A stretch of DNA of 64,000 nt from Harriotta raleighana (Eukaryota). This document shows positions 7,424 to 64,000 of the stretch, in pieces (position 1 is the stretch's first letter; each line of letters starts with the position of its first letter). Location: positions 525,083 through 589,082 of the forward strand of contig JBNZDD010013586.1 of assembly GCA_050575255.1 (NCBI GenBank). The letters run 5' to 3'. The notes below the pieces were generated by a model. It did not search any database and was not told the origin of the DNA. It saw only the letters and a list, made by a program, of their open reading frames with translations. A program made the position numbers and the translations under genes.

Positions 7424-7674
7424 CAGCGTTCGGTCGTCTTAAAACTGCTCTGAACAGTTTCCATCTTTAGAAATAGGGTTAGGGATTTTAACAACAACAA
7501 CATCAAACTCAGATCGATGGATGAATGAATTGAACANCAGCGTTCGGTCGTCTTAAAACTGCTCTGAACAGTTTCCATCTTTAGAAACAGGGTTAGGGAT
7601 TTTAACCAGAAAACAGGTTACTGCAACTCGCAGTCTCATCATCAAACTCAGATCGATGGATGAATGAATTGAAC
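7424..7674. repeat. Direct duplication around single N at 7537 (probable haplotype overlap)
   Basis: 7424-7535 recurs from 7538 with one substitution and one indel. Confidence 0.9.
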
Positions 7675-8582
7675 GAATGAATAAATGAATGAATGCACTA
7701 GAGGAAATGTACCTATTCCTCGCCAACTTGACTATGAGGCTTGCACAGGTCAGGGTGACAACGAGTCCGAAAGGCGCAAGGCTGTCTTTCAAGTCAGTTT
7801 CTTTCAGCTGTATCGACTCTCGCGATCACTGCCCCGATAATCCTCCCGATGTGTTAATGTTGCATATGTCTGCCAGGCATAAAGGATTAGCAGCGTTATC
7901 TGATAGGTCATGTCAGATCATTTGAAACCATCAGTGAAGAGCAGCCAGACAAAGTCTCTGTACTTGCACATGAGCTTCAGAGTAGTCAAAAGGGCAGGTT
8001 CCTGGTGGGGTTAGAAGGAGTGTATGGTGAACAGATTCATGGTGTTCCAGTCACGGTGGGAACACCCATTAGTATTATAGTCTATAATCAAAATCCAAGC
8101 TCTCATTTACGCTTTCATGCAGAATATTCAGGGCCATTCGTAACCCCCGTCATTTCCACAGCAAAACTGAAGAGCAGATTAAATGTACATGCGTCGTATT
8201 TCATATAAGGCGTGCAGATCGAAATGGGGCCCGCAGTGATACTGCGAAGAGGGTAACGCTCTGTGCGTGTTGAAATGCTGACCTGAATATAGTCGCAACG
8301 TACGAAAGGAGTCTGAAGCCAGAGGATCAGCATGGAGCAACTACCACAGGCGAACATTTGAACATTCACTAGACTTTCCCAGGAACGTTTATTAATCTCA
8401 ATGTGTCAACACTTTGTGGGGAACAATGGAAAAAACCATTGGCGACCCAGCAATATGGTACAAAGCCATGGCAGGAGAGAGAAATATGTTAATTCTCCGC
8501 GAGTTCAAGGGACGGAAGAATCGTGTACATTTCTTCTGCGTGGAACTTTTCGTGCTCTTATGGTCCAGCGTGTGAGGTAGAA

Positions 8583-8947
8583 GATAGAAGTGAGAAGCGA
8601 ATAGATGCCATGTTCCTCCTGATTTTATTGTTGAGACACATCAAGCCTAAGAAGATCCAGACACACATTGTCTGCACAAATATAACCAATACTCTGGATC
8701 AACGAGGAGTTGAAATNGATAGAAGTGAGAAGCGAATAGATGCCATGTTCCTCCTGATTTTATTGTTAAGACACATCAAGCCTAAGAAGATCCAGACACA
8801 CATTGTCTGCACAAATATAACCAAATACTCTGGATCAACGAGGAGTTGAAACATTTTATTGTTAAGACACATCAAGCCTAAGAAGATCCAGACACACATT
8901 GTCTGCACAAATATAACCAAATACTCTGGATCAACGAGGAGTTGAAA
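8583..8947. repeat. Direct duplication around N at 8717, plus a 96-bp tandem duplication in the second copy
   Basis: 8583-8715 recurs at 8718-8851; the unit starting ATTTTATTGTTAAGACAC occurs at 8757 and again at 8853. Confidence 0.9.
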
Positions 8948-26600: not shown

Positions 26601-26752
26601 GCCATAAAGAGTGCAAATCCTTAACTGTCCAGTGCCTTGGGACGTCTTTCCTATGTGAAAATCACTATGTATATCAATGTAATTTGTTGTTGTCGTGCTT
26701 CATGTGAATGTGTGGCTGCTTTACGTCTGTTTTGCATTTTCTTATTTATTTA

Positions 26753-26857
26753 TTTTTTTTCCCACTCGGTGTGGGAAGATCACAATTCCTGGATGAATTG
26801 TGANTTTTTTTTTCCCCACTCGGCGTGGGAAGATCACAATTCCTGGATGAATTGTGA
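26753..26857. repeat. Direct duplication around N at 26804 (probable haplotype overlap)
   Basis: About 50 bp repeated, with a substitution and homopolymer length differences. Confidence 0.9.
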
Positions 26858-27187: not shown

Positions 27188-27362
27188 TTTATTTATTTAT
27201 TTATTTTTATATTATATTTATATAGCGCCTTTCACGTCAGGAGGACGTCCCAAGCCGCTGTACAGTCAAGTGGAGGGGGGGGGGGTCGGGGGAAAAAAAG
27301 TAGGAAAAACTGACTGTATATTTGTGGGCGAAACGCGGCAGCCAAATTGCGCACAGCAGAAC
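27188..27362 (-). mobile_element. Retroposon family B (SINE-A-like body plus alternative L2-type tail), 5'-truncated
   Basis: TATAGCGCCTTTCACGTCAGGAGGACGTCCCAAG...CTGTACAGTCAAGT...GACTGTATATTTGTGGGCGAAACGCGGCAGCCAAATTGCGCACAGCAG; (TAAA)n tail on the minus strand. Confidence 0.85.
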
Positions 27363-28235: not shown

Positions 28236-28724
28236 TATTGTTAGCCATAGGGGGATTTACAGTATCACTAAAATTATTATTGTCCTGGTAGTCACCATAT
28301 CAAAACTCTTCTGATGCAACCAGCTTTGTACTCCAATATTTAAGTATCACTATCTGTCATTGAGATGTTTGTTCAATGGAGGTCAACTTCAAGAATTCAG
28401 AGTTAGCTCATTCACATCATGGAACTCCACACCACTGCTCTTCACATCTCCTCCCATCCATCCACCCTCCAAGTATTAGTAATGCAATGATATCAAGCAC
28501 ATACCAAGCATCCTGAAATGAATACTTCTTTTTTTCTAAAAAAATTCAATATTTCCGAAACATAGCATCCATCCAGAATTCCACATTTTGATTAATGAAC
28601 AATTCACCCAAAATGTTGTTTTCAATCTATGAGCAACTGTTTTCCTACAAAAAAAAAGTCATTACACTATCTTAAAAAGTGCTTTGAGACATCAACTGTG
28701 ACACTGTATCAAATGTAAGGATTA

Positions 28725-29007
28725 TCAATCAATCAAAATTACATTTATCTAGCGCCTTTCATGTCGGGAGGGCGTCCCAAGACGCTGTACAGTCAAGTAG
28801 GGATCAGAGTGGGAGGTGGGGAAGGAAAGTAGGAAAAATTGACTGTATATTTGTGGGCGAAAACACGGCAGCCAAATTGCTCACAGCAGTGTCCCACAAA
28901 CAGTCATGGAAGGCGGGTTAGGGGAGAAAGGGGGGAAAGATGGCAAGGGGTGAAGTCGGAGTAGGGGGAAGGAGAACAGGAAAAAACGGCTGTATATTTG
29001 TGGGTGA
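28725..29007 (-). mobile_element. Retroposon family B, inserted in the tail of a plus-strand SINE A fragment (about 28660-28725)
   Basis: Same structure as the 27188 and 59661 copies, with a (TTGA)n tail; a second GGAAAAA..CTGTATATTTGTGGG motif at about 28978-29005. Confidence 0.85.
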
Positions 29008-36039: not shown

Positions 36040-36490
36040 TTTGGATGAAGAAAGCCCCTTTAACTCATCTGATTTCATGCCTCCAGAACACTCCTCCTAT
36101 CATCTCCTCCCAACATGGCACCAAGCCGCTTTTTAAATAAGTCCAATGCTCTGAACACAAATACCTTTCCTGACAATATGTTCCCATCATTAATTACTTT
36201 GTGAGTTNATCTCCTCCCAACATGGCACCAAGCCGCTTTTTAAATAAGTCCAATGCTCCGAACACAAACACCTTTCCTGACAATATGTTCCCATCATTAA
36301 TTACTTTGTGAGTTAAGAAGAACCTACTGGTATTTGTCCTGAAATTACTCTTTTCTACTCTGAACCTACATCGTCTTATTCTACCGTCTCGGTGCATCCT
36401 AAAGTATTTTGATGGGTTTCACTTTTCAATCCCATTTTAAATGTTGTACAGTTCTTCGAGATAACCCTCGGCATTCTCTTCTGTCCAGAC
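36040..36490 (-). mobile_element. CR1-clade LINE 3' end; 36102-36207 is duplicated at 36209-36314 across N at 36208
   Basis: ORF track 36194..36397 gives FRTNTSRFFLTHKVINDGN...LDLFKKRL, the CR1 terminal motif. Confidence 0.85.
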
Positions 36491-42964: not shown

Positions 42965-43174
42965 AATTCCAGTGTAAGCTCAGTTAATAATAATAATTTA
43001 ATAAGTTAATAATAATAATTTAATAAGTTAATAATATTTGCATTTGATATAGTGCCTTATCACATATTTTTGAGATGTCCNAATTCCAGTGTAAGCTCAG
43101 TTAATAATAATAATTTAATAAGTTAATAATATTTGCGTTTGATATAGCGCCTTATCACATATTTTTGAGATGTC
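42965..43174. repeat. Direct duplication around N at 43081; contains a minus-strand SINE A tail
   Basis: The two copies differ by one unit of an AT-rich tandem repeat of about 23 bp and two substitutions. Confidence 0.9.
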
Positions 43175-44728
43175 TGAACAACAAAACAGCAGCAATTTCC
43201 TGAGTTACAACTATTGAGATCTTTAGCAAAGTAATTGTTTGGGGGAAATAAGCAAAACTGTGAAGTCTTTGGAACGAGAGTGTCCTCTAAGCTGTGCAAG
43301 GATACCTACAAACTGGTCATCGAGGAGTTTGAGATGTTACAGTTTTAGCATGATTAAGAAGAAGAAAATGAATGTCTCGATAATTAATGACCCTATAAGA
43401 ATCAAACGCATGGCAATCCAGTTGTGCTGATCATTAGCAATATTTGGCTGCAGAGCACAACCCTCCCCGATGCTAGCGGAATACAAAAAAAAATTTATGC
43501 CATTTCTCCAGCTGTTGGTTAATGACTCTCTGGAAATAACTGAGTCTGCAATCCCTCCGTAACAACACATTAGTAAAAGCTTTAAACACAGGGAGTCGCA
43601 ACAGCCTAGCTAAAGCCTGCTAAATCATAACCAGGTGACTTGAAAGAAAAAGTGAACAAACGAAAGAGAAATGACGACTGATTTAGCTGTTCCACCTCCA
43701 TCAGGCCCATCAATGACATCTTCCCAAGAGCTGCCCAGACTTCCTGTTTCCCATCTCAAAGGATGATGACAGCCACAAGAGGAGCAAAAGGCCATGTTGC
43801 TGGGTTAAGCAACGAGTTCATATCCCCATCAGCCCCAACTCTGACTCTCATGTAGGCTCTGCTAGTTGCATTCTTCGAATGATCGGAAATACCAAATTCA
43901 CTTTTGTTGGCTCAGTCTTCTCATCTGATGATGTAAGTTGGTGCTTTGGCAGCCAGAGTTGCAAACCTGTTTTGAACTAATAACCGCTCTTCACAACAGG
44001 CAACTGTTTTGTGGCGTGCAGCACGATCGGTTCGGTGGGGGAGCCAGGCATCATCATCCCAATATTGAAAACATTATCCACAACTTAAAATTGCTCCTTT
44101 AGCCCACAACCACTTAAATAGCGAAGGACAAACACCATGGTTTATAATTGTATGATTAGAGGTGACTGTTGCAGAACATTTTCCAAGTGACCCTCAAACC
44201 ATGCAATGAAGATCGGAACTGTATTCCCAATATATGGATACTTTGGGTTACCTCATGGTTTACAATTTACTAAATTGGTGTTTTACTTCTTACTCTGTTT
44301 GTCTAGCTTTCATGAGTGATTGTGCAATGTCGGTGTTATATTAACAGTTAAGGAAGCTATGATTGATTTTTTTTTGACATATGGGACTGGAGTTAATGAA
44401 GAGAAGTGCCAATAAATTATGGCTTTCATTTACAAAGCTATAAAGATTGCTGCACTGAGATGTCTGAACAAAGACCAGTTTAGATTTAAATCATTTTCCA
44501 GCTAATGTTTATGACTTTACCTTTGCTCCAGATAAATTGAGAGAAAAAATATACTCATTGTAAACGAGATACAGTACATTGAGAAGTATCAATAAAGGAT
44601 ACATTTTTGGAATTCCATATCTTTTAATGACACATGATTGTTTTTCTTAACTCTGATGTTATATATTTATATATATAAAAATAATATATTAAATTATTGT
44701 ATAATCTCTTTCAAAATGTCAAATACCA

Positions 44729-47635: not shown

Positions 47636-47985
47636 ATAATCATTACATTCGATATAGTACCTTATCATGTTTTCGAGCACTTCACAGGATGGAAAATAAA
47701 CTGAATTGACTGTATATTTTGTGAGCGAAACACAGCACCCAATTGTTCCCAGCAGTGTCTCACAAACAATTGTGGAGTGAGTGACCAATTTTGTTTTAAA
47801 AAGGAATTATTACCCCCGGCAAAGCAATCTGCCAATTGACAAACGACTGTGTTCTAACTCACTGCTGGGTAAACAGAAGCGAGTGGTGAAAGGAAACTTG
47901 CCCAATATTTCGCCCTGCTCTGGAATCAAACCTTCAGCCAGTCTCTCACTTGCAAGGTGAATGCTCTAACCACTGAGCCACAGCA
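47636..47985 (-). mobile_element. SINE A variant, full length, with extra central segment
   Basis: Minus-strand head CTGTGGCTCAGTGGTTAGAGCATTCACCTTGCAAGTGAGAGAC...GTTTGATTCCAGAGCAGGGCGAAA, then a segment absent from standard copies, then normal body and tail. Confidence 0.85.
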
Positions 47986-49044
47986 GCTGCAAGGACTATA
48001 TTTATTGTTTAATGAATTAAATGATCAGGTAACTTTATAAGATTGACGTGTTAATAAGACGTCAACTATACTGTCAGCTGGATTTCCCCAAGCCAAGCTA
48101 TCAGAACAAATATTGTCCCACAACATGGAGGCTTAGTAAAACAAGCACTGGAAAGCTTTGTATAATGGCACCTCAACCCATGTTTCAAGCAAAATAATAC
48201 CACTTTAATTAAGTATCTATTCCTGAGATGGGTGTGCTTATCTTTCTGAATCCTTCTCTGGCCAAATTTGCAAATTCTCACTGAACATTATGTGCAATTA
48301 CCTAGAGTCTATTCTTTCATTTCCACATTCTTCCCGTTATCTTTTATTCCCGTTTGCTACGCTGTTCGAGCAACTTGAGGACAGCTGGTTAATGCACTTT
48401 GTCTGACTCTTATTTCACATGCAGCTCAATCAATTGGCTCTTGAAATCCAGAAATGTTGTTGCAAACAAAATAAAGTTCTAAAAGCATGAAGATTGATGA
48501 TTTTGCTATTCATTGAGAGCTATTAGTTTTACAGTCCACACTAGACTACTTAAGTAATTACCAGATAAGTGAATATTTCTGTAAAGTGAAAGAGATTGAA
48601 AATCCCATAATAATTCCAAACGCCACTCATTCTGTTCACTGTTCTGAACAGAAGAAAACAATCTAAATTTACTGTGGTTCATACATTTCTAGATTTAGAC
48701 ATTTTATCAGTTTACAGTCCAAAATGTATCCGTCACTTGTTCCGTGGCTTTAGTTATTTCAATAAAGAACCAAAGCAATAACAGTATGACAGCAGTTAAT
48801 AGTATGAAACCCATAACAGTATGAAAAATATGACATGAACGGAAGCCATCTACAAAAGTAAAAGCTACTAAGAAACCACAATGTAATCTATTTCAGTCTA
48901 AATTCCTTGTAAGTGAACACTAAACAAATGGACCTCCAACCTGCTACTGCCCAATGAGGACTGCATAAATCAACATATAGAAGATAGTCTAATGATCACG
49001 TGATGTTCATGTATTTGTCACGAAGTAAATCAATGCTTTGTATA

Positions 49045-49400: not shown

Positions 49401-49718
49401 GTGTCCTGTAGCTCAGTGTCCTAGAGCACTCGCCTTGCGAGCGAGAAACCTGGGTTCGATTCCCATCCATGACAAAACCCTGGGCAACCTTACTGACTCC
49501 ACATGCCTGATAATAATCCCTCAAATCAATAATCATAAATTGATCACTTCAATCCACGATTATTTGTGGGGAGGTTGCTGTGCACAATTGGCTGCCACGT
49601 TTCGCCCACAAAGTATGCAGTCAATTCACTTTACAGTATGTTCTGTGAAGCGCTTTGAGACATCTAGAGGCATGGAAAGCTCTATATCAAATGCAAGGAT
49701 TATGATTATTATTATTAC
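49401..49718 (+). mobile_element. SINE family A, full length (about 320 bp; tRNA-derived head, L2-type tail)
   Basis: GTCCTGTAGCTCAGTGTCCTAGAGCACTCGCCTTGCGAGCGAGAAACCTGGGTTCGATTCCC with Pol III A and B boxes, body, and tail ending (ATT)n. Confidence 0.92.
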
Positions 49719-54257: not shown

Positions 54258-54389
54258 ATAAATGAATTTTAATCAATAGAATTATTATCTCTAACTAGTC
54301 TTGCAAAAACAATAACAACACTTNATAAATGAATTTTAATCAATAGAATTATTATCTCTAACTAGTCTTGCAAATACAATAACAACACT
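54258..54389. repeat. Direct duplication around N at 54324 (probable haplotype overlap)
   Basis: About 65 bp repeated with a small difference in the A-run after TTGC. Confidence 0.9.
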
Positions 54390-56376
54390 TGTTACGTCAT
54401 GAATGCCTATGTAGAATACAACCAGAAGTTAACAGCCAATGCAGGTCTAAACAACAGCTGTTTCAAACCAATTTCATTACAGTCACTAAAGTCACTACAC
54501 ATTTAGGGTATAACCTGTGAAGCACTTTGAGAAGTCCTTTAAAAATTGTTTTTATTATACATAAAGACATCACTCCAACTCTTGAGAACGCCCTACTTTG
54601 TGATCTACTTTGAGCAGGATTCCCACAAGTCAACCTGACATACTTCCAGTTACTCAGAGTCCTTGATTGAGGGAGCCCATTTGAAATCATTTGGTTTTGA
54701 TTCCTTTGGGTAGAGATTAATGTTGAACACTGTTTGTGAGTGAATGGGAAGGTACTGTATAACACACTAGGCTCTTAGATTTCAAGCTGCTGGTTTCACC
54801 CACTTGCCCAAGAGACGTCAAGTCCAAGCAAAGCTGGTGCTTTCCATGGTAAGGAGAAAAACTCACCATCTAATTGTCCCCAAATGACAGAGTTCTGAGA
54901 GCAAGTCGCTTACTTTATCATTGGGTGGGTGGGGGGAACAAACAAACAACTCACTTCAAGTCCACACTCCTCTCACAAATAAATGATATCAGATCCCTAA
55001 AGATATTAATTTTTTTTCAACTTAGGACGTAAAAGGTATTAAGAGTTCAGCCACGATTACCTTGAGGTAGGAATTCTAACTTTTACAATGACCTTTTATC
55101 ATACACTTGAATATATTGATAATGCCTAAAGCAAGGTTTTGGCATTGCACTCTCCTTATTTATAACATAATCTACAGTCACTGCGTTGTGGTTTTCATTG
55201 CCTCCATTGTTCTGGGGGGTTACTTTGACATATTTTTTTTACCTGTTATTGGGCACACACCAGTGTAGTAGGAGAATAATATCAAAGGAACCATTTGCTT
55301 CAGATGTGGGTAGTAAAAGGAATTCCGTACCCATTTTGTTCTGAAGGGCTTCTACACATTTGTTCAAAATTAAAGGTACTGCAGTAACTTCAAAGAGAAA
55401 CAGGTTACAGAAACCAGATTAAGGAAGAACGATCTGGGAATGTTTAATCCTCAAGTGGAGTGTATAGTCCCGGATTCTGCCTGTAAGTTCTATGATTTTG
55501 TTATATCCGATTTGATGATGACTTATTGTTTTCTAAAATCTCAAGACTGGCAACAGATCATCATTACAAGTCATCAATATCATTCATCCGTTTGTGCAAT
55601 CAATACATTGTTGTGATGGCAGAACCAATGAGCTAATTTGACATATGGTCCATCCAAGTCTGTCCAACACGAACACTGTTTCCACTGTGATGTAAATTAT
55701 CACACATCAGAAATATCAATAAACTCCATCCATTCCTTTGCAAAATGCACACTCATTACACTTGAGAGAAAATCCTGTGAAGTGCTTTGAAAGATCCTAC
55801 TGACGTGAAAAGTGCTTATCAAATGCAAGTTTTTTTTTAAAAAAAATGAATTAACACATTCTCCCACAATCTGGAATAACCAACACCAGGCATTTTTAAT
55901 GAATTTTGGCAAACAACATTTCTGTAAAAATGCATAATTTCTATCCCTTAGGATTATTTTGTGTTACATCTCCACAACAACTTTGTTTGTTTTTCAAAAT
56001 CCTTCTTATTTTGAAAATTCTTCACCTGCTCCTCATTTTCTTTTCTTTAAAAAAGCAATCTGGTCTTATTGCTACAAATAGTTGGAGGTTGGGAGCTAGT
56101 AATGTAGTTATAACGTTACGTATTTATCTGATATGAAATGGTCTTGCAAATAATAAAACAGCCTTTCATCTAGTTAATTATAAAGAGGAGCATATTTATT
56201 CCACTGTATGCAACATGGAAGCTGAAGAGCAATACTAGAGAAATAAATTACTTTCGGATTGCAGCCATTTGACAAATAATGAAAGGTGACAATTTTCATT
56301 TTTTACATTCTCTGCTCCAAACTGCTGAAGATTTAATCACAGCCAACAGGTAATTGTGGAAGAGGGAATAAAAGCC

Positions 56377-58127: not shown

Positions 58128-58885
58128 AAACGATTGTTTGTAGGACACGGCTGTACACAATTCGCTGCCGTGATTCGCCCACAAATATACAATTCACTTC
58201 ACAGTATATGCTGTGAAACGCTTTGAGACGCCTTGAAGATCAGGAGGTACAGGCAGTCCTCTAGTTACGACGTTCCGAGGTACGACAATTCGAAGTTACG
58301 ACGCTTAATATCAGTAAAATTACATCCGAGTTACATCCAAAGTCTTGAAGTCACGACACTACAACGTAAATACTTTAGTTGCCCCACGCGCGATAGAAAA
58401 CTGCAGTCGCCGCTCTCAACACCTACGGGAGCACGATACGCGTTCAGGACAGGAACAGGATGGAGGCGAGACGTGAGTGTGTACTGTACAGGTACTGTGT
58501 GAGTCTGTGAGCTCGGCGGTACAGTACTCTCCAGCCTTTAGACGCTGCGCTACGTCGCGTGTGATCTCCTGCGTTGCGCTACATCGCGTGTAATCTCCTG
58601 TGTTGCGCTATATCGCATGTCAAGCTCACAATGAAGCCAAGTAAGTAGGCTAGTAATAGCCTAGTAATATTTTATTTTATTTACAGTACTGTACATATTA
58701 GGAGGGGTGCAGGGGAGAGAGGGCAGCCCACTATACACTACAACCAATCACTGTATGTTACTGTAAGCATTATAGGGGGGTGACTCGACTTACATACAAA
58801 TTCGACTTACACCACATCTTAGGAACCTAACCCTGACGTAACTTGAGGACCGCCTGTATATCAAATGTAAACATTATTATTATCA
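58128..58885 (+). mobile_element. SINE family A 3' half, interrupted by the MITE at 58250-58856
   Basis: SINE body at 58128-58247 resumes after the MITE as TATCAAATGTAAACATTATTATTAT. Confidence 0.85.
58250..58856. mobile_element. Non-autonomous Tc1/mariner-superfamily DNA transposon (Tigger/pogo-like MITE), 607 bp
   Basis: Left end CAGGCAGTCCTCTAGTTACG and reverse-complemented right end CAGGCGGTCCTCAAGTTACG match at 18 of 20; TA at 58248-58249 and 58857-58858; subterminal TCGA(C/AG)TTAC repeats; flanks rejoin into a SINE tail. Confidence 0.9.
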
Positions 58886-59505
58886 TCAGCTTCCAGCATC
58901 CCAATAAGCACCCATCCCATTATTGGCAATGACATACTGAGACGGATAAAATCACCCACCCATTCACGCCTCTCCCACACCCCTCCCACAAAATCGAATG
59001 CAACGCTTGTGTAACTATGAGGTTCATCTGAATAAAAACTCCTAGCTTGAATAACAATCTAGTTATTGGCAATCTAACATTCTTCACCCAATGATAGCTT
59101 TGCTGTTGCTATTTACTGTACACATTGATGTAGACCTCATGGTCTCCCAAGGAAACAGTATTAGAGGGTGGGAAGAAGACACTAATTATAGAGCAAATCA
59201 CCACTAATAGTCCCAAACCTACACCCTTTCTCCAGAATGCAGAATCTCACTTATCCTCGCCCTTTGATTCATATACAGTGGCCTGGCAAAATCTGTTTTT
59301 CTAATAGACAAACTTTACTGAAATAGTAATACATGTAAGTGTTTTTCTTCAGATGTACCGACAAATGTAAAAGTTTTTTTTTTTAAAGTGTCTTTTTTGT
59401 ACAACAACAACAAAATTACATTTGTATAGCATTTTTCAAAGCATATCTTGCAACAAAAAAAGATTTTTTATTGCGTGAATGTTTGCTCTATGTTATTTAT
59501 CTTAC

Positions 59506-60081
59506 AAAAAGAATTGTAGAAACATAAAAACATTTGATGATATTGATTAAGGAATTTAGAATCGACTGACTGAAAGCATACCATTCCTCTCAATGTGACA
59601 CATGGAACAATGTACTTTTGCACCAAACTCACTCTAGAACACAGTATAACAGATCCCTATCAATCAATCAAAATCAAAATCAAAATTTTATTTATATAGC
59701 GCCTTTCACGTCGGGAGGACGTCCCAAAGCGCTGTACAGCCAAGTAGGGGGGGAGGGCTCAGGGAAAGGAGTAGGAAAAATTGACTGTATATTTGTGGGC
59801 GAAACGTGGCAGCCAAATTGCGCACAGCAGTGTCCCACAAACACACACAGAAATGGGGGGAAAAAAAGGGGGGATCCCTATGCTAGGAATCTCACAGAAT
59901 AGGNAAAAAGAATTGTAGAAACATAAAAACATTTGATAATATTGATTAAGGAATTTAGAATCGACTGACTGAAAGCATGCCATTCCTCTCAATGTGACAC
60001 ATGGAACAATGTACTTTTGCACCAAACTCACTCTAGAACACAGTATAACAGATCCCTATGCTAGGAATCTCACAGAATAGG
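59506..60081. repeat. Direct duplication around N at 59904: filled copy then empty copy
   Basis: The flanks of the 59661-59872 insertion recur uninterrupted at 59905-60081 with two substitutions. Confidence 0.92.
59661..59872 (-). mobile_element. Retroposon family B, 212 bp, 5'-truncated, with 9-bp target-site duplication
   Basis: GATCCCTAT at 59652-59660 and 59873-59881; (TTTTGA)n(TTGA)n tail on the minus strand; the empty site is visible at about 60051. Confidence 0.92.
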
Positions 60082-60629
60082 AAAAAAATTGATGCGTGCG
60101 ATTGGGTGGCCTGGGCTACAGAGAGGATTGGTTACCAAGAGCAGACAGATACCATTCTGATCCATAGATATTTCTGCCAATTAGAGAAAAATTAATAAAA
60201 ACTGATTTGTAACAAACGTTCTGCTACCTTAGCTGGGTGTCCCTCGACTTTTTTTTTAATCTCCTCTTGTGGGATTTCCCGTGTTACTTTCCACATAGAC
60301 ACCAATTAGAGAGGGTTTAATTAAACTTGGATTTCACGCTTGACAAATTGAAATCCTAGCAACAAGTCCAAGTACCAACTTCAGTCGTAACAGAAGGTTT
60401 GGCAAATGATTACAGTGATAAGCAGGGTTCTGAGCTAACTGAACAAAGGGGGATGAACAGAGTGAAACAGGGGCATGTGCATGGATGAGATTTAGACCTT
60501 TGCATTCCTTCCATTGTCTTTGAAATAGAGGATTAAGACAACGTTAATTGCAAGATGTCAACAGTTCCTCAAATGACAGCCCTGGGGGTGATTCCCTTCT
60601 TAAAGGGAAATGAATTATCACTTATCGCG

Positions 60630-63391: not shown

Positions 63392-63633
63392 CAATTTCAA
63401 TCAGAAATTTACAGTTTGGATAAGGTGAAATACTGTAGCATTCATTATTTAACAAGTCTTATTTCTAGGCCTGTTATCCTTTGTGCATTATGATCCTGCA
63501 GAGTAGGTCAGTNCAATTTCAATCAGAAATTTACAGTTTGGATAAGGTGAAATACTGTAGCATCCATTATTTAACAAGTCTTAATTCTAGGCCTGTTATC
63601 CTTTGTGCATTATGATCCTGCAGAGTAGGTCAG
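63392..63633. repeat. Direct duplication around N at 63513 (probable haplotype overlap)
   Basis: About 120 bp repeated with two substitutions. Confidence 0.9.
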
Positions 63634-64000
63634 CTGAATCTAGTTGCACACAAACTGACCAAGAAGTCACTGATACAAGTTTAATCTTTTAAGATCTGTG
63701 ATCATTTGTTGGATTCACCTTACTGATGTGGGAAGGTAAATAATCTAAGCCTGCACGTTTGTGCTATATATTATGTGTGCTTTCAATGTAATTTTGCAAA
63801 ATACTGTGCCAGGGAGTTTAATTGCAAGATCCCATCACATCAAAAACATTAAAACAGGAGAACAGGTAACAACTCACTCAAGAATTATCTTTTGGGTTTG
63901 TCTCAAGCACTAGAAATCCCAGTACTTACCAAAATACCAAATTTGTGAAAATATCTCTTTTTTTCTCATGATTGATGGTGTACATCTGTTTGTTGGTGGT

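Follow-up and report, generated by a model that had tools for sequence, protein, structure and literature searches.

How does a stretch of unique DNA come to stand twice within a few hundred bases, once with and once without an inserted repeat? This is the question raised by positions 59506 to 60081 of a window from Harriotta raleighana, the window being the whole stretch of DNA that was analysed (64 kb). The reading preferred here, at a probability of about 0.8, is that a heterozygous unique site has been printed in its filled and its empty form at a one-base gap, and that the insert is a fragment of a non-autonomous element of about 1.1 kb mobilised by L2. The features of the site are as follows.

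59506-59651, plus strand: unique left flank of the filled version, with 2 substitutions relative to 59905-60050 and a single place in the assembly.
59652-59660, plus strand: target copy at the 3' end of the element; its final 2 nt (AT) extend the tail repeat.
59661-59872, minus strand: insert of 212 bp, judged from its relatives to be the 5'-truncated 3' fifth of a non-autonomous retroposon of about 1.1 kb.
59661-59685, minus strand: terminal microsatellite tail of ATTG and ATTTTG units, read from the sequence; the relatives have tails of the same type.
59686-59739, minus strand: module of about 55-60 nt common to the 3' end of an L2 LINE (match to the L160 tail), predicted stem-loop.
59779-59843, minus strand: box of about 65 bp common to an abundant tRNA-headed SINE (many window matches at 75-94%), predicted hairpin.
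59844-59872, minus strand: end of a pyrimidine-rich linker and point of truncation; relatives continue with about 350 bp more of C/T-rich and TTG sequence.
59873-59881, plus strand: target copy at the 5' end of the element; 2 nt (TC on the element strand) agree, too, with the sequence that continues the element upstream.
59882-59903, plus strand: unique right flank of the filled version, 22 bp, identical to 60060-60081.
59904, no strand: single N between two overlapping assembly pieces, a layout found at all 8 Ns of the window.
59905-60081, plus strand: empty version, holding a single target copy (60051-60059); crossed without a gap by a contig of run X1 (59979-60156).

Exactly three copies of the target GATCCCTAT lie in the 64-kb window, at 59652-59660, 59873-59881 and 60051-60059. 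Left of the N the order is flank, target, 212-bp insert, target and 22 bp of right flank; right of it, flank, a single target and right flank. The 155 bp at 59506-59660 are duplicated at 59905-60059 with 98.7% identity, and the 31 bp at 59873-59903 at 60051-60081 with 100% identity. With the insert and one target copy excluded, two of the 177 positions distinguish the filled from the empty version (59539 G against 59938 A; 59580 A against 59979 G), and the gap in length is 212 plus 9, or 221 bp. An earlier note on this DNA had described the site in these terms, and the 212-bp insert, the duplicated 9-bp target, the empty copy past the N, the two substitutions and the 221-bp difference were all reproduced. 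The duplicated flank is unique in the assembly, with one candidate place and three matches, all at the site. Two other features lie nearby: a short L2-type tail remnant with (TTG)n on the minus strand at 59401-59435, covered to thousands-fold read depth, and a CpG-rich 29-bp tandem repeat in about three copies at 58543-58620.

The insert belongs to a large family. Scoring of 40 among 1,560 candidates yielded 39 other copies 96-99% identical to it, and a search for the 34-nt tail of the young copies gave 1,752 exact matches, with 0 for the control. Read depth in X11 is about 4,000 on the repeat and about 2 on the unique flank, an order similar to the tail count. A fixed unit of 212 bp was considered, the top matches all aligning from position 1, and was rejected because 26 of the 29 relatives examined reach further 5' than the insert, stopping at many different points. 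Six of 30 copies with the exact tail keep just the last 40-62 nt. Fifteen of the 30 (L162-L191) begin within 18 nt, at positions 968-985 of the L087 copy; this start zone lies at the 3' arm of a 14-bp hairpin predicted to enclose the SINE-shared box (-25.8 kcal/mol), and it may represent either a truncation hotspot or a sub-element of about 125 nt. The copies L162 and L183 have in common 500 bp of unrelated upstream sequence (96%) with the same join base and differing 3' flanks. This upstream DNA, about 500 bp above the tail module, could come from a chimeric source or from 5' transduction, and by eye it looks coding, perhaps retroviral. The window also holds two older truncated relatives of other subfamilies on the minus strand, at 27211-27359 (89%) and 28724-28936 (81-85%).

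Full-length copies show what the insert is a fragment of. A motif in the middle of the body has 58 exact matches, and 7 of the 30 examined share their sequence up to one start 461-473 bp upstream. The full unit at L087 measures about 1.11 kb, the insert in the window corresponding to its final fifth, and the full-length range is 1.0-1.3 kb. In L087 a head of about 520 bp, with 66-76% G+C and 6-10 CpG per 100 bp, is followed by a TTG-rich stretch, a pyrimidine tract, the SINE-shared box and the tail. A head motif has 158 exact matches; ATGGC precedes it in 27 of 30 loci, with unrelated flank before that, and the YY1-type start reads AAGATGGC in 11 of these loci and AAATGGC in 9. The L2-type tail is reached within 446-1,313 bp in 15 of the 30 head loci. 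For most copies a GC hairpin is predicted in the first 45 nt or so, with z of -3.4 and -3.6 in two copies but of -1.5 and 0 in two others, and internal tandem repeats of about 21 bp vary in number. Three head loci, L119, L120 and L121 (G000:C13445), are one duplicated locus: these full-length copies lie 5-7 kb apart with identical flanks, which indicates tandem segmental duplication and not three insertions. Subfamilies are about 69-95% alike and differ in their terminal repeats, the most distant having the tail type of the older SINE; to judge from these sequences, this suggests tail exchange over time. The SINE in question, which combines the shared box with an older L2-type tail, is seen at 49403-49716 (plus strand) and 47916-47987 (minus strand), with Rfam tRNA scores of 41 and 31 bits, and tRNA-headed SINE fragments are many across the window. 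The box of about 65 bp may resemble the central Deu domain of the DeuSINEs.

Whether such a unit is an element in its own right bears on the strongest of the alternatives, which accepts the heterozygous site and regards the element as the long 3' UTR of an unassembled LINE, or as a SINE with a decayed tRNA head, in place of a separate polymerase II unit. The first form draws on the collapse of young LINEs in short-read assemblies and on a coding signature between two subfamilies, where, in the latter part of the body, 5 of 5 indels are codon multiples and changes fall 17 times on the third position against 11 and 11; this pattern breaks down against a third subfamily. Both forms are opposed by gap-free copies that lead from the fixed head into the tail within 0.7-1.3 kb (7 of the 30 head loci, and also L081, L087 and L096). 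The LINE form is opposed further by open reading frames, none of which exceeds 255 codons in the 30 head loci or 302 in 17 further loci, and none of the 30 tail loci, the 30 head loci or the 17 further loci has an ORF2 between head and tail. The decayed-SINE form can point to an A-box-like motif in 3 of 5 heads and a B-box-like motif in 2 of 5 (one subfamily), by general consensus patterns; the youngest subfamily is without the B-like motif, and the head gave no match to tRNA, 5S or 7SL RNA (Rfam at 5 loci; ARAGORN at 8 loci; 136-bp head, E<=10). A head derived from one of these RNAs was accordingly rejected, weak Rfam hairpin matches far below the gathering scores being put down to chance, and the tRNA hits in L081 fall in the flanks, outside the element. 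On this balance the alternative is unlikely, and the insert is better read as part of a composite, non-autonomous unit.

The unit nevertheless has a trace of coding potential. Among 7 young full copies, a frame of 164 codons stays open in 2; in 4 it has been lost, and in 1 it lacks an ATG. Four copies have a 2-bp deletion in common, and spread therefore continued from a source with a frameshift. Two protein searches returned no Pfam family and no homologue of the frame, which is weak evidence, and the frame is at most a decayed coding remnant. A coding parent was rejected on the same searches and because apparent long frames cross N gaps, as did 10 of the 10 long frames checked. An ORF1-only LINE of the HAL1 or Ag-Sponge type was likewise set aside, the frame being open in just 2 of the 7 copies. 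Transcription would probably start from the element's own head by polymerase II, a proposal made because the head begins like amniote L1, with a YY1-type motif and a CpG island.

The enzymes would then come from another element, and a plausible donor is abundant in this genome. A LINE with Exo_endo_phos (endonuclease) and RVT_1 (RT) domains gave 83,128 candidates, of which 150 were scored with an RT query taken from locus L046; in the RT region its copies agree pairwise at 93.5-99.9% (median 96.1, 406 pairs). The 3' end of this LINE (L160 tail) matches the element's last 60 nt or so at 83-89% over 41-59 nt, followed by (TTG)n, a terminal repeat that differs from that of the element, and the common module forms a stem-loop in the predicted fold. 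The L2-type tail proposed earlier is supported, being shared with an endonuclease- and RT-bearing LINE of the same genome. By its protein motifs this LINE presumably belongs to L2. The label also appears apt from likeness to L2-2_CM, described in passages of PMC5499810 as the partner of elephant-shark SINEs. Such an L2 is the likely enzyme donor and would act in trans on the element, and, given a tail identity of just 83-89%, there may be a closer partner than the one found. LINE coding sequence was present on 0 of 30 exact-tail copies.

An intact L2 ORF2, which had been put forward as something to search for, was not among the 150 scored of the 83,128 candidates. The longest true LINE frame has 840 aa and is 5'-truncated, and a frame of 1,119 aa was rejected because it runs through N gaps. 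The LINE 5' end, reached in 7 of 30 loci, consists of a tandem repeat of about 85 bp, which brings to mind the monomer promoters of rodent L1; in L214, L218, L222, L229, L230, L232 and L233 these repeats occur with a TATA-like motif 340-400 bp above the search motif. The element head shows no similarity to the L2 5' ends in 30 loci, and the element is thus not an internal deletion of this L2. An origin of the head from the local L2 5' UTR, as in a bipartite element, was rejected for the same reason; another LINE may have been the donor.

Compared with the majority of its 29 closest relatives, the insert carries one CpG-type change in 162 core positions. The relatives carry 2.1 changes on average, and in 57 of 406 pairs the two copies have the same sequence over the 162 bp; because they were chosen for similarity, the age estimate is biased young. 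By a crude clock of about 0.001 per site per million years, taken from a passage of PMC5499810, one change corresponds to some 6 million years, with a very wide error. To judge from these sequences the insertion is young on the evolutionary scale, the crude clock putting it at no more than a few million years, and it is probably not yet fixed. Of the "recent or ongoing" retrotransposition suggested before, the recent part holds; the ongoing part is not borne out, the copy standing one change from the family majority and the 150 scored LINE candidates including no intact L2 ORF2.

The junctions give some insight into how the insert arrived. On the element strand the target starts with AT, continuing the ATTG tail, and ends with TC, the bases found before the aligned start in 16 of 29 relatives (TTTTTC or TTATTC). 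The 2-nt microhomology at both junctions makes each end ambiguous by 2 nt and leaves a staggered cut of 5-9 bp; a 2-nt match at a single site is weak evidence by itself. The microhomology between tail and target that the earlier note had described is present, as 2 nt (AT) of the target that extend the tail repeat. Its statement that the site fixes the exact element ends has to be given up, both for the 2-nt ambiguity and because the 212 bp are a 5'-truncated fragment of the unit of about 1.1 kb. Across the family, 12 of 49 copies have a duplication of 5-8 bp, a share to be set against 3.6% among 2,352 mismatched junction pairs, and most copies have little or none; the 49 are the distinct copies with N-free junctions out of 90 loci, a filter that removed the window's copy. 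The 9-bp duplication at the site exceeds all 49 others scored (maximum 8). Passages on L2 elements report a peak of target duplication at 3-5 bp (PMC4245944) and microhomology at the 3' end in about 80%, and at the 5' end in about 50%, of zebrafish ZfL2-2 copies (PMC2666801). The 5-8 bp duplications of the family are in line with that peak and with the ZfL2-2 microhomology.

Staggered 5' ends, a common intact 3' end, a simple-repeat tail and a short target-site duplication of 9 bp, seen against the empty site, are hallmarks of TPRT. In the proposed sequence of events, the element's own head would drive its transcription, probably with RNA polymerase II, and the L2 ORF2 protein would bind the 3' stem-loop and nick the target. 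Reverse transcription would be primed with the help of the 2-nt pairing of tail and target, and would halt after about a fifth of the RNA, inside the pyrimidine tract. The 5' end would then be joined via the second 2-nt match, the staggered cut of 5-9 bp being left as the duplication.

Why both states of one site are printed side by side is suggested by the single Ns. A near-identical duplicate abuts 8 of the 8 in the window; at the other seven the overlaps measure 53-138 bp with 1-5 substitutions, and two have indels of 22 and 25 bp. Their duplicates are:

7424-7675: at the N at 7537, with the 25-bp indel.
8583-8947: at the N at 8717, with a third partial copy at 8853-8947.
26751-26857.
36102-36314.
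42965-43175: at the N at 43081, with the 22-bp indel, a tandem unit.
54258-54390.
63392-63634.

Such a pattern would be expected where an assembler fails to merge two haplotypes. At other loci of the genome, a duplicate of this kind also abuts 29 of 58 single Ns. Since all eight Ns of the window have duplicates and the site has no second place in the assembly, the filled and empty versions are best read as a heterozygous pair, and heterozygosity of the sequenced animal is, from the assembly layout, most likely. A second filled/empty pair of the family was not found among 58 other single Ns of the genome.

The idea that a single chromosome carries a genuine tandem duplication of about 177 bp, with one unit later hit by the insertion and no allelic polymorphism, is less credible than the alternative about the element's nature. 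The two versions do stand in tandem in the assembly, the gap-free X1 contig fits this arrangement as well as the allelic one, and at other loci a duplicate abuts only 29 of the 58 single Ns, the remaining 29 being without one at the thresholds used. Against it, the boundary of the unit falls exactly at the N, and all eight Ns of the window are alike and have allele-like differences.

A filled version due to mis-assembly, or to a rare somatic or pooled-sample insertion, with no germline allele, is marginally more improbable again. Raw reads X11-X13 (one sample) reach about 1-3x on the unique flank and thousands-fold on the repeat, and with reads so shallow and so swamped by repeat no read or contig crosses either filled junction; young repeats are, moreover, known here to disrupt short-read assemblies, many N gaps lying inside copies. 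The empty state fares better. The X1 contig crosses it with 72 bases on the left side of the target and 97 on the right, at 7 differences in 990 bases from the window flank, and so shows that the empty site exists in another sample (the samples of X1 and X11-X13 need not be the sequenced animal); bin depths hint at one X11 read over the empty site, too weakly to count. Still, unique flank meets the element at both filled junctions, where the 9-bp duplication is clean and microhomologies of 2 nt are seen, and the filled piece has two flank substitutions of its own. The claim of a heterozygous polymorphism is supported as regards two haplotypes in tandem at a single N, and of the two forms the empty one alone is borne out by a contig, in another sample. 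An ancestral filled state, emptied by exact excision between the 9-bp repeats, would yield the same pair of sequences and can be dismissed as most improbable, since repeats of 9 bp seldom give rise to such excision, the copy departs from the family majority by a single change, and it is the empty form that another sample shows.

As a heterozygous insertion, the site would serve as a population marker free of homoplasy and, for a cartilaginous fish, as a natural pre-insertion site of L2-type integration; the one-base gaps of the assembly would offer a cheap screen for more filled/empty pairs. An L2-carried element with a fixed head of non-small-RNA origin would broaden the known passenger routes on L2. 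The family would also show recent mobilisation in a lineage for which passages of PMC5499810 place the main SINE waves more than 100 million years ago. More tentatively, and at odds below even, chimaera-type fishes may harbour long-lived, still mobile composite retroposons built of an L1-like YY1/CpG polymerase II head of unrelated origin, a decayed coding remnant, a SINE-derived box and an L2 tail swapped with each change of partner LINE. These would form a class of polymerase II passengers of the L2 clade that the literature consulted does not list, with the present site as a segregating insertion in a slowly evolving genome. In the literature searched, the family of about 1.1 kb is not described; it may already be catalogued in Repbase, in Dfam or in the supplements of PMC5499810. 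The repeat types by themselves point to a cartilaginous fish, probably a chimaera, as host.

The nearest known systems are those of Callorhinchus milii, where the CmiSINEs (SINE2-1_CM, SINE2-1B_CM) and SacSINE1-CM, with L2-2_CM as partner, are described in part of PMC5499810 as sharing a 3' module among families and an L2-type tail. In a like manner, the present element shares its box of about 65 bp with the local tRNA-headed SINE and about 60 nt with the local L2. It is set apart, as far as those descriptions go, by a CpG-rich, non-tRNA head, where CmiSINEs and SacSINE1-CM have a tRNA head that contains A and B boxes, and by its length of 1.0-1.3 kb, relatives of SacSINE1 being given there as up to about 460 bp. 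In 5' truncation, short or absent target duplications and microhomology at both ends, the insertions resemble those of ZfL2-1 and ZfL2-2 as portrayed in sections of PMC4245944 and PMC2666801. Unlike the present element, those are autonomous, and their reported peak is 3-5 bp against an apparent 9 bp here (5 bp once the two microhomologies are taken off).

Among non-autonomous LINEs, the bipartite elements (RTE, Ingi, Vingi, R2) and the ORF1-only HAL1, Ag-Sponge and HeT-A have a defined 5' end and a LINE tail, as here, and polymerase II is probable for them too in the portions of PMC5786205 drawn on. Those portions give ORF-less bipartite forms for RTE, Ingi, Vingi and R2 only, L2 being absent from them. 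In contrast to bipartite LINEs, the head here is foreign to the tail-donor L2 and there is no match to an ORF1 family. Bird SINEs, cited in passages of PMC7245038 and PMC5786205, also have a GC-rich head without known small-RNA origin; they sit, by these accounts, on bipartite RTE sequence, and the present element on an L2 tail and a SINE-shared box. The 5' end of amniote L1, a YY1-type motif (CAAGATGGC there) followed by a CpG island according to an extract of PMC5381506, is the likeness on the head side, although the element is without L1 ORFs or poly(A), its tail is L2-type and an L1 donor was not found. SVA of apes is similar in being composite, GC-rich and LINE-carried, with tandem repeats of about 21 bp variable in number, and no shared sequence is claimed. 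SVA is mobilised by L1 and has poly(A) and long duplications, features in which the present element differs. The event itself, a polymorphic retroposon insertion, is ordinary; the family that carries it is unusual.
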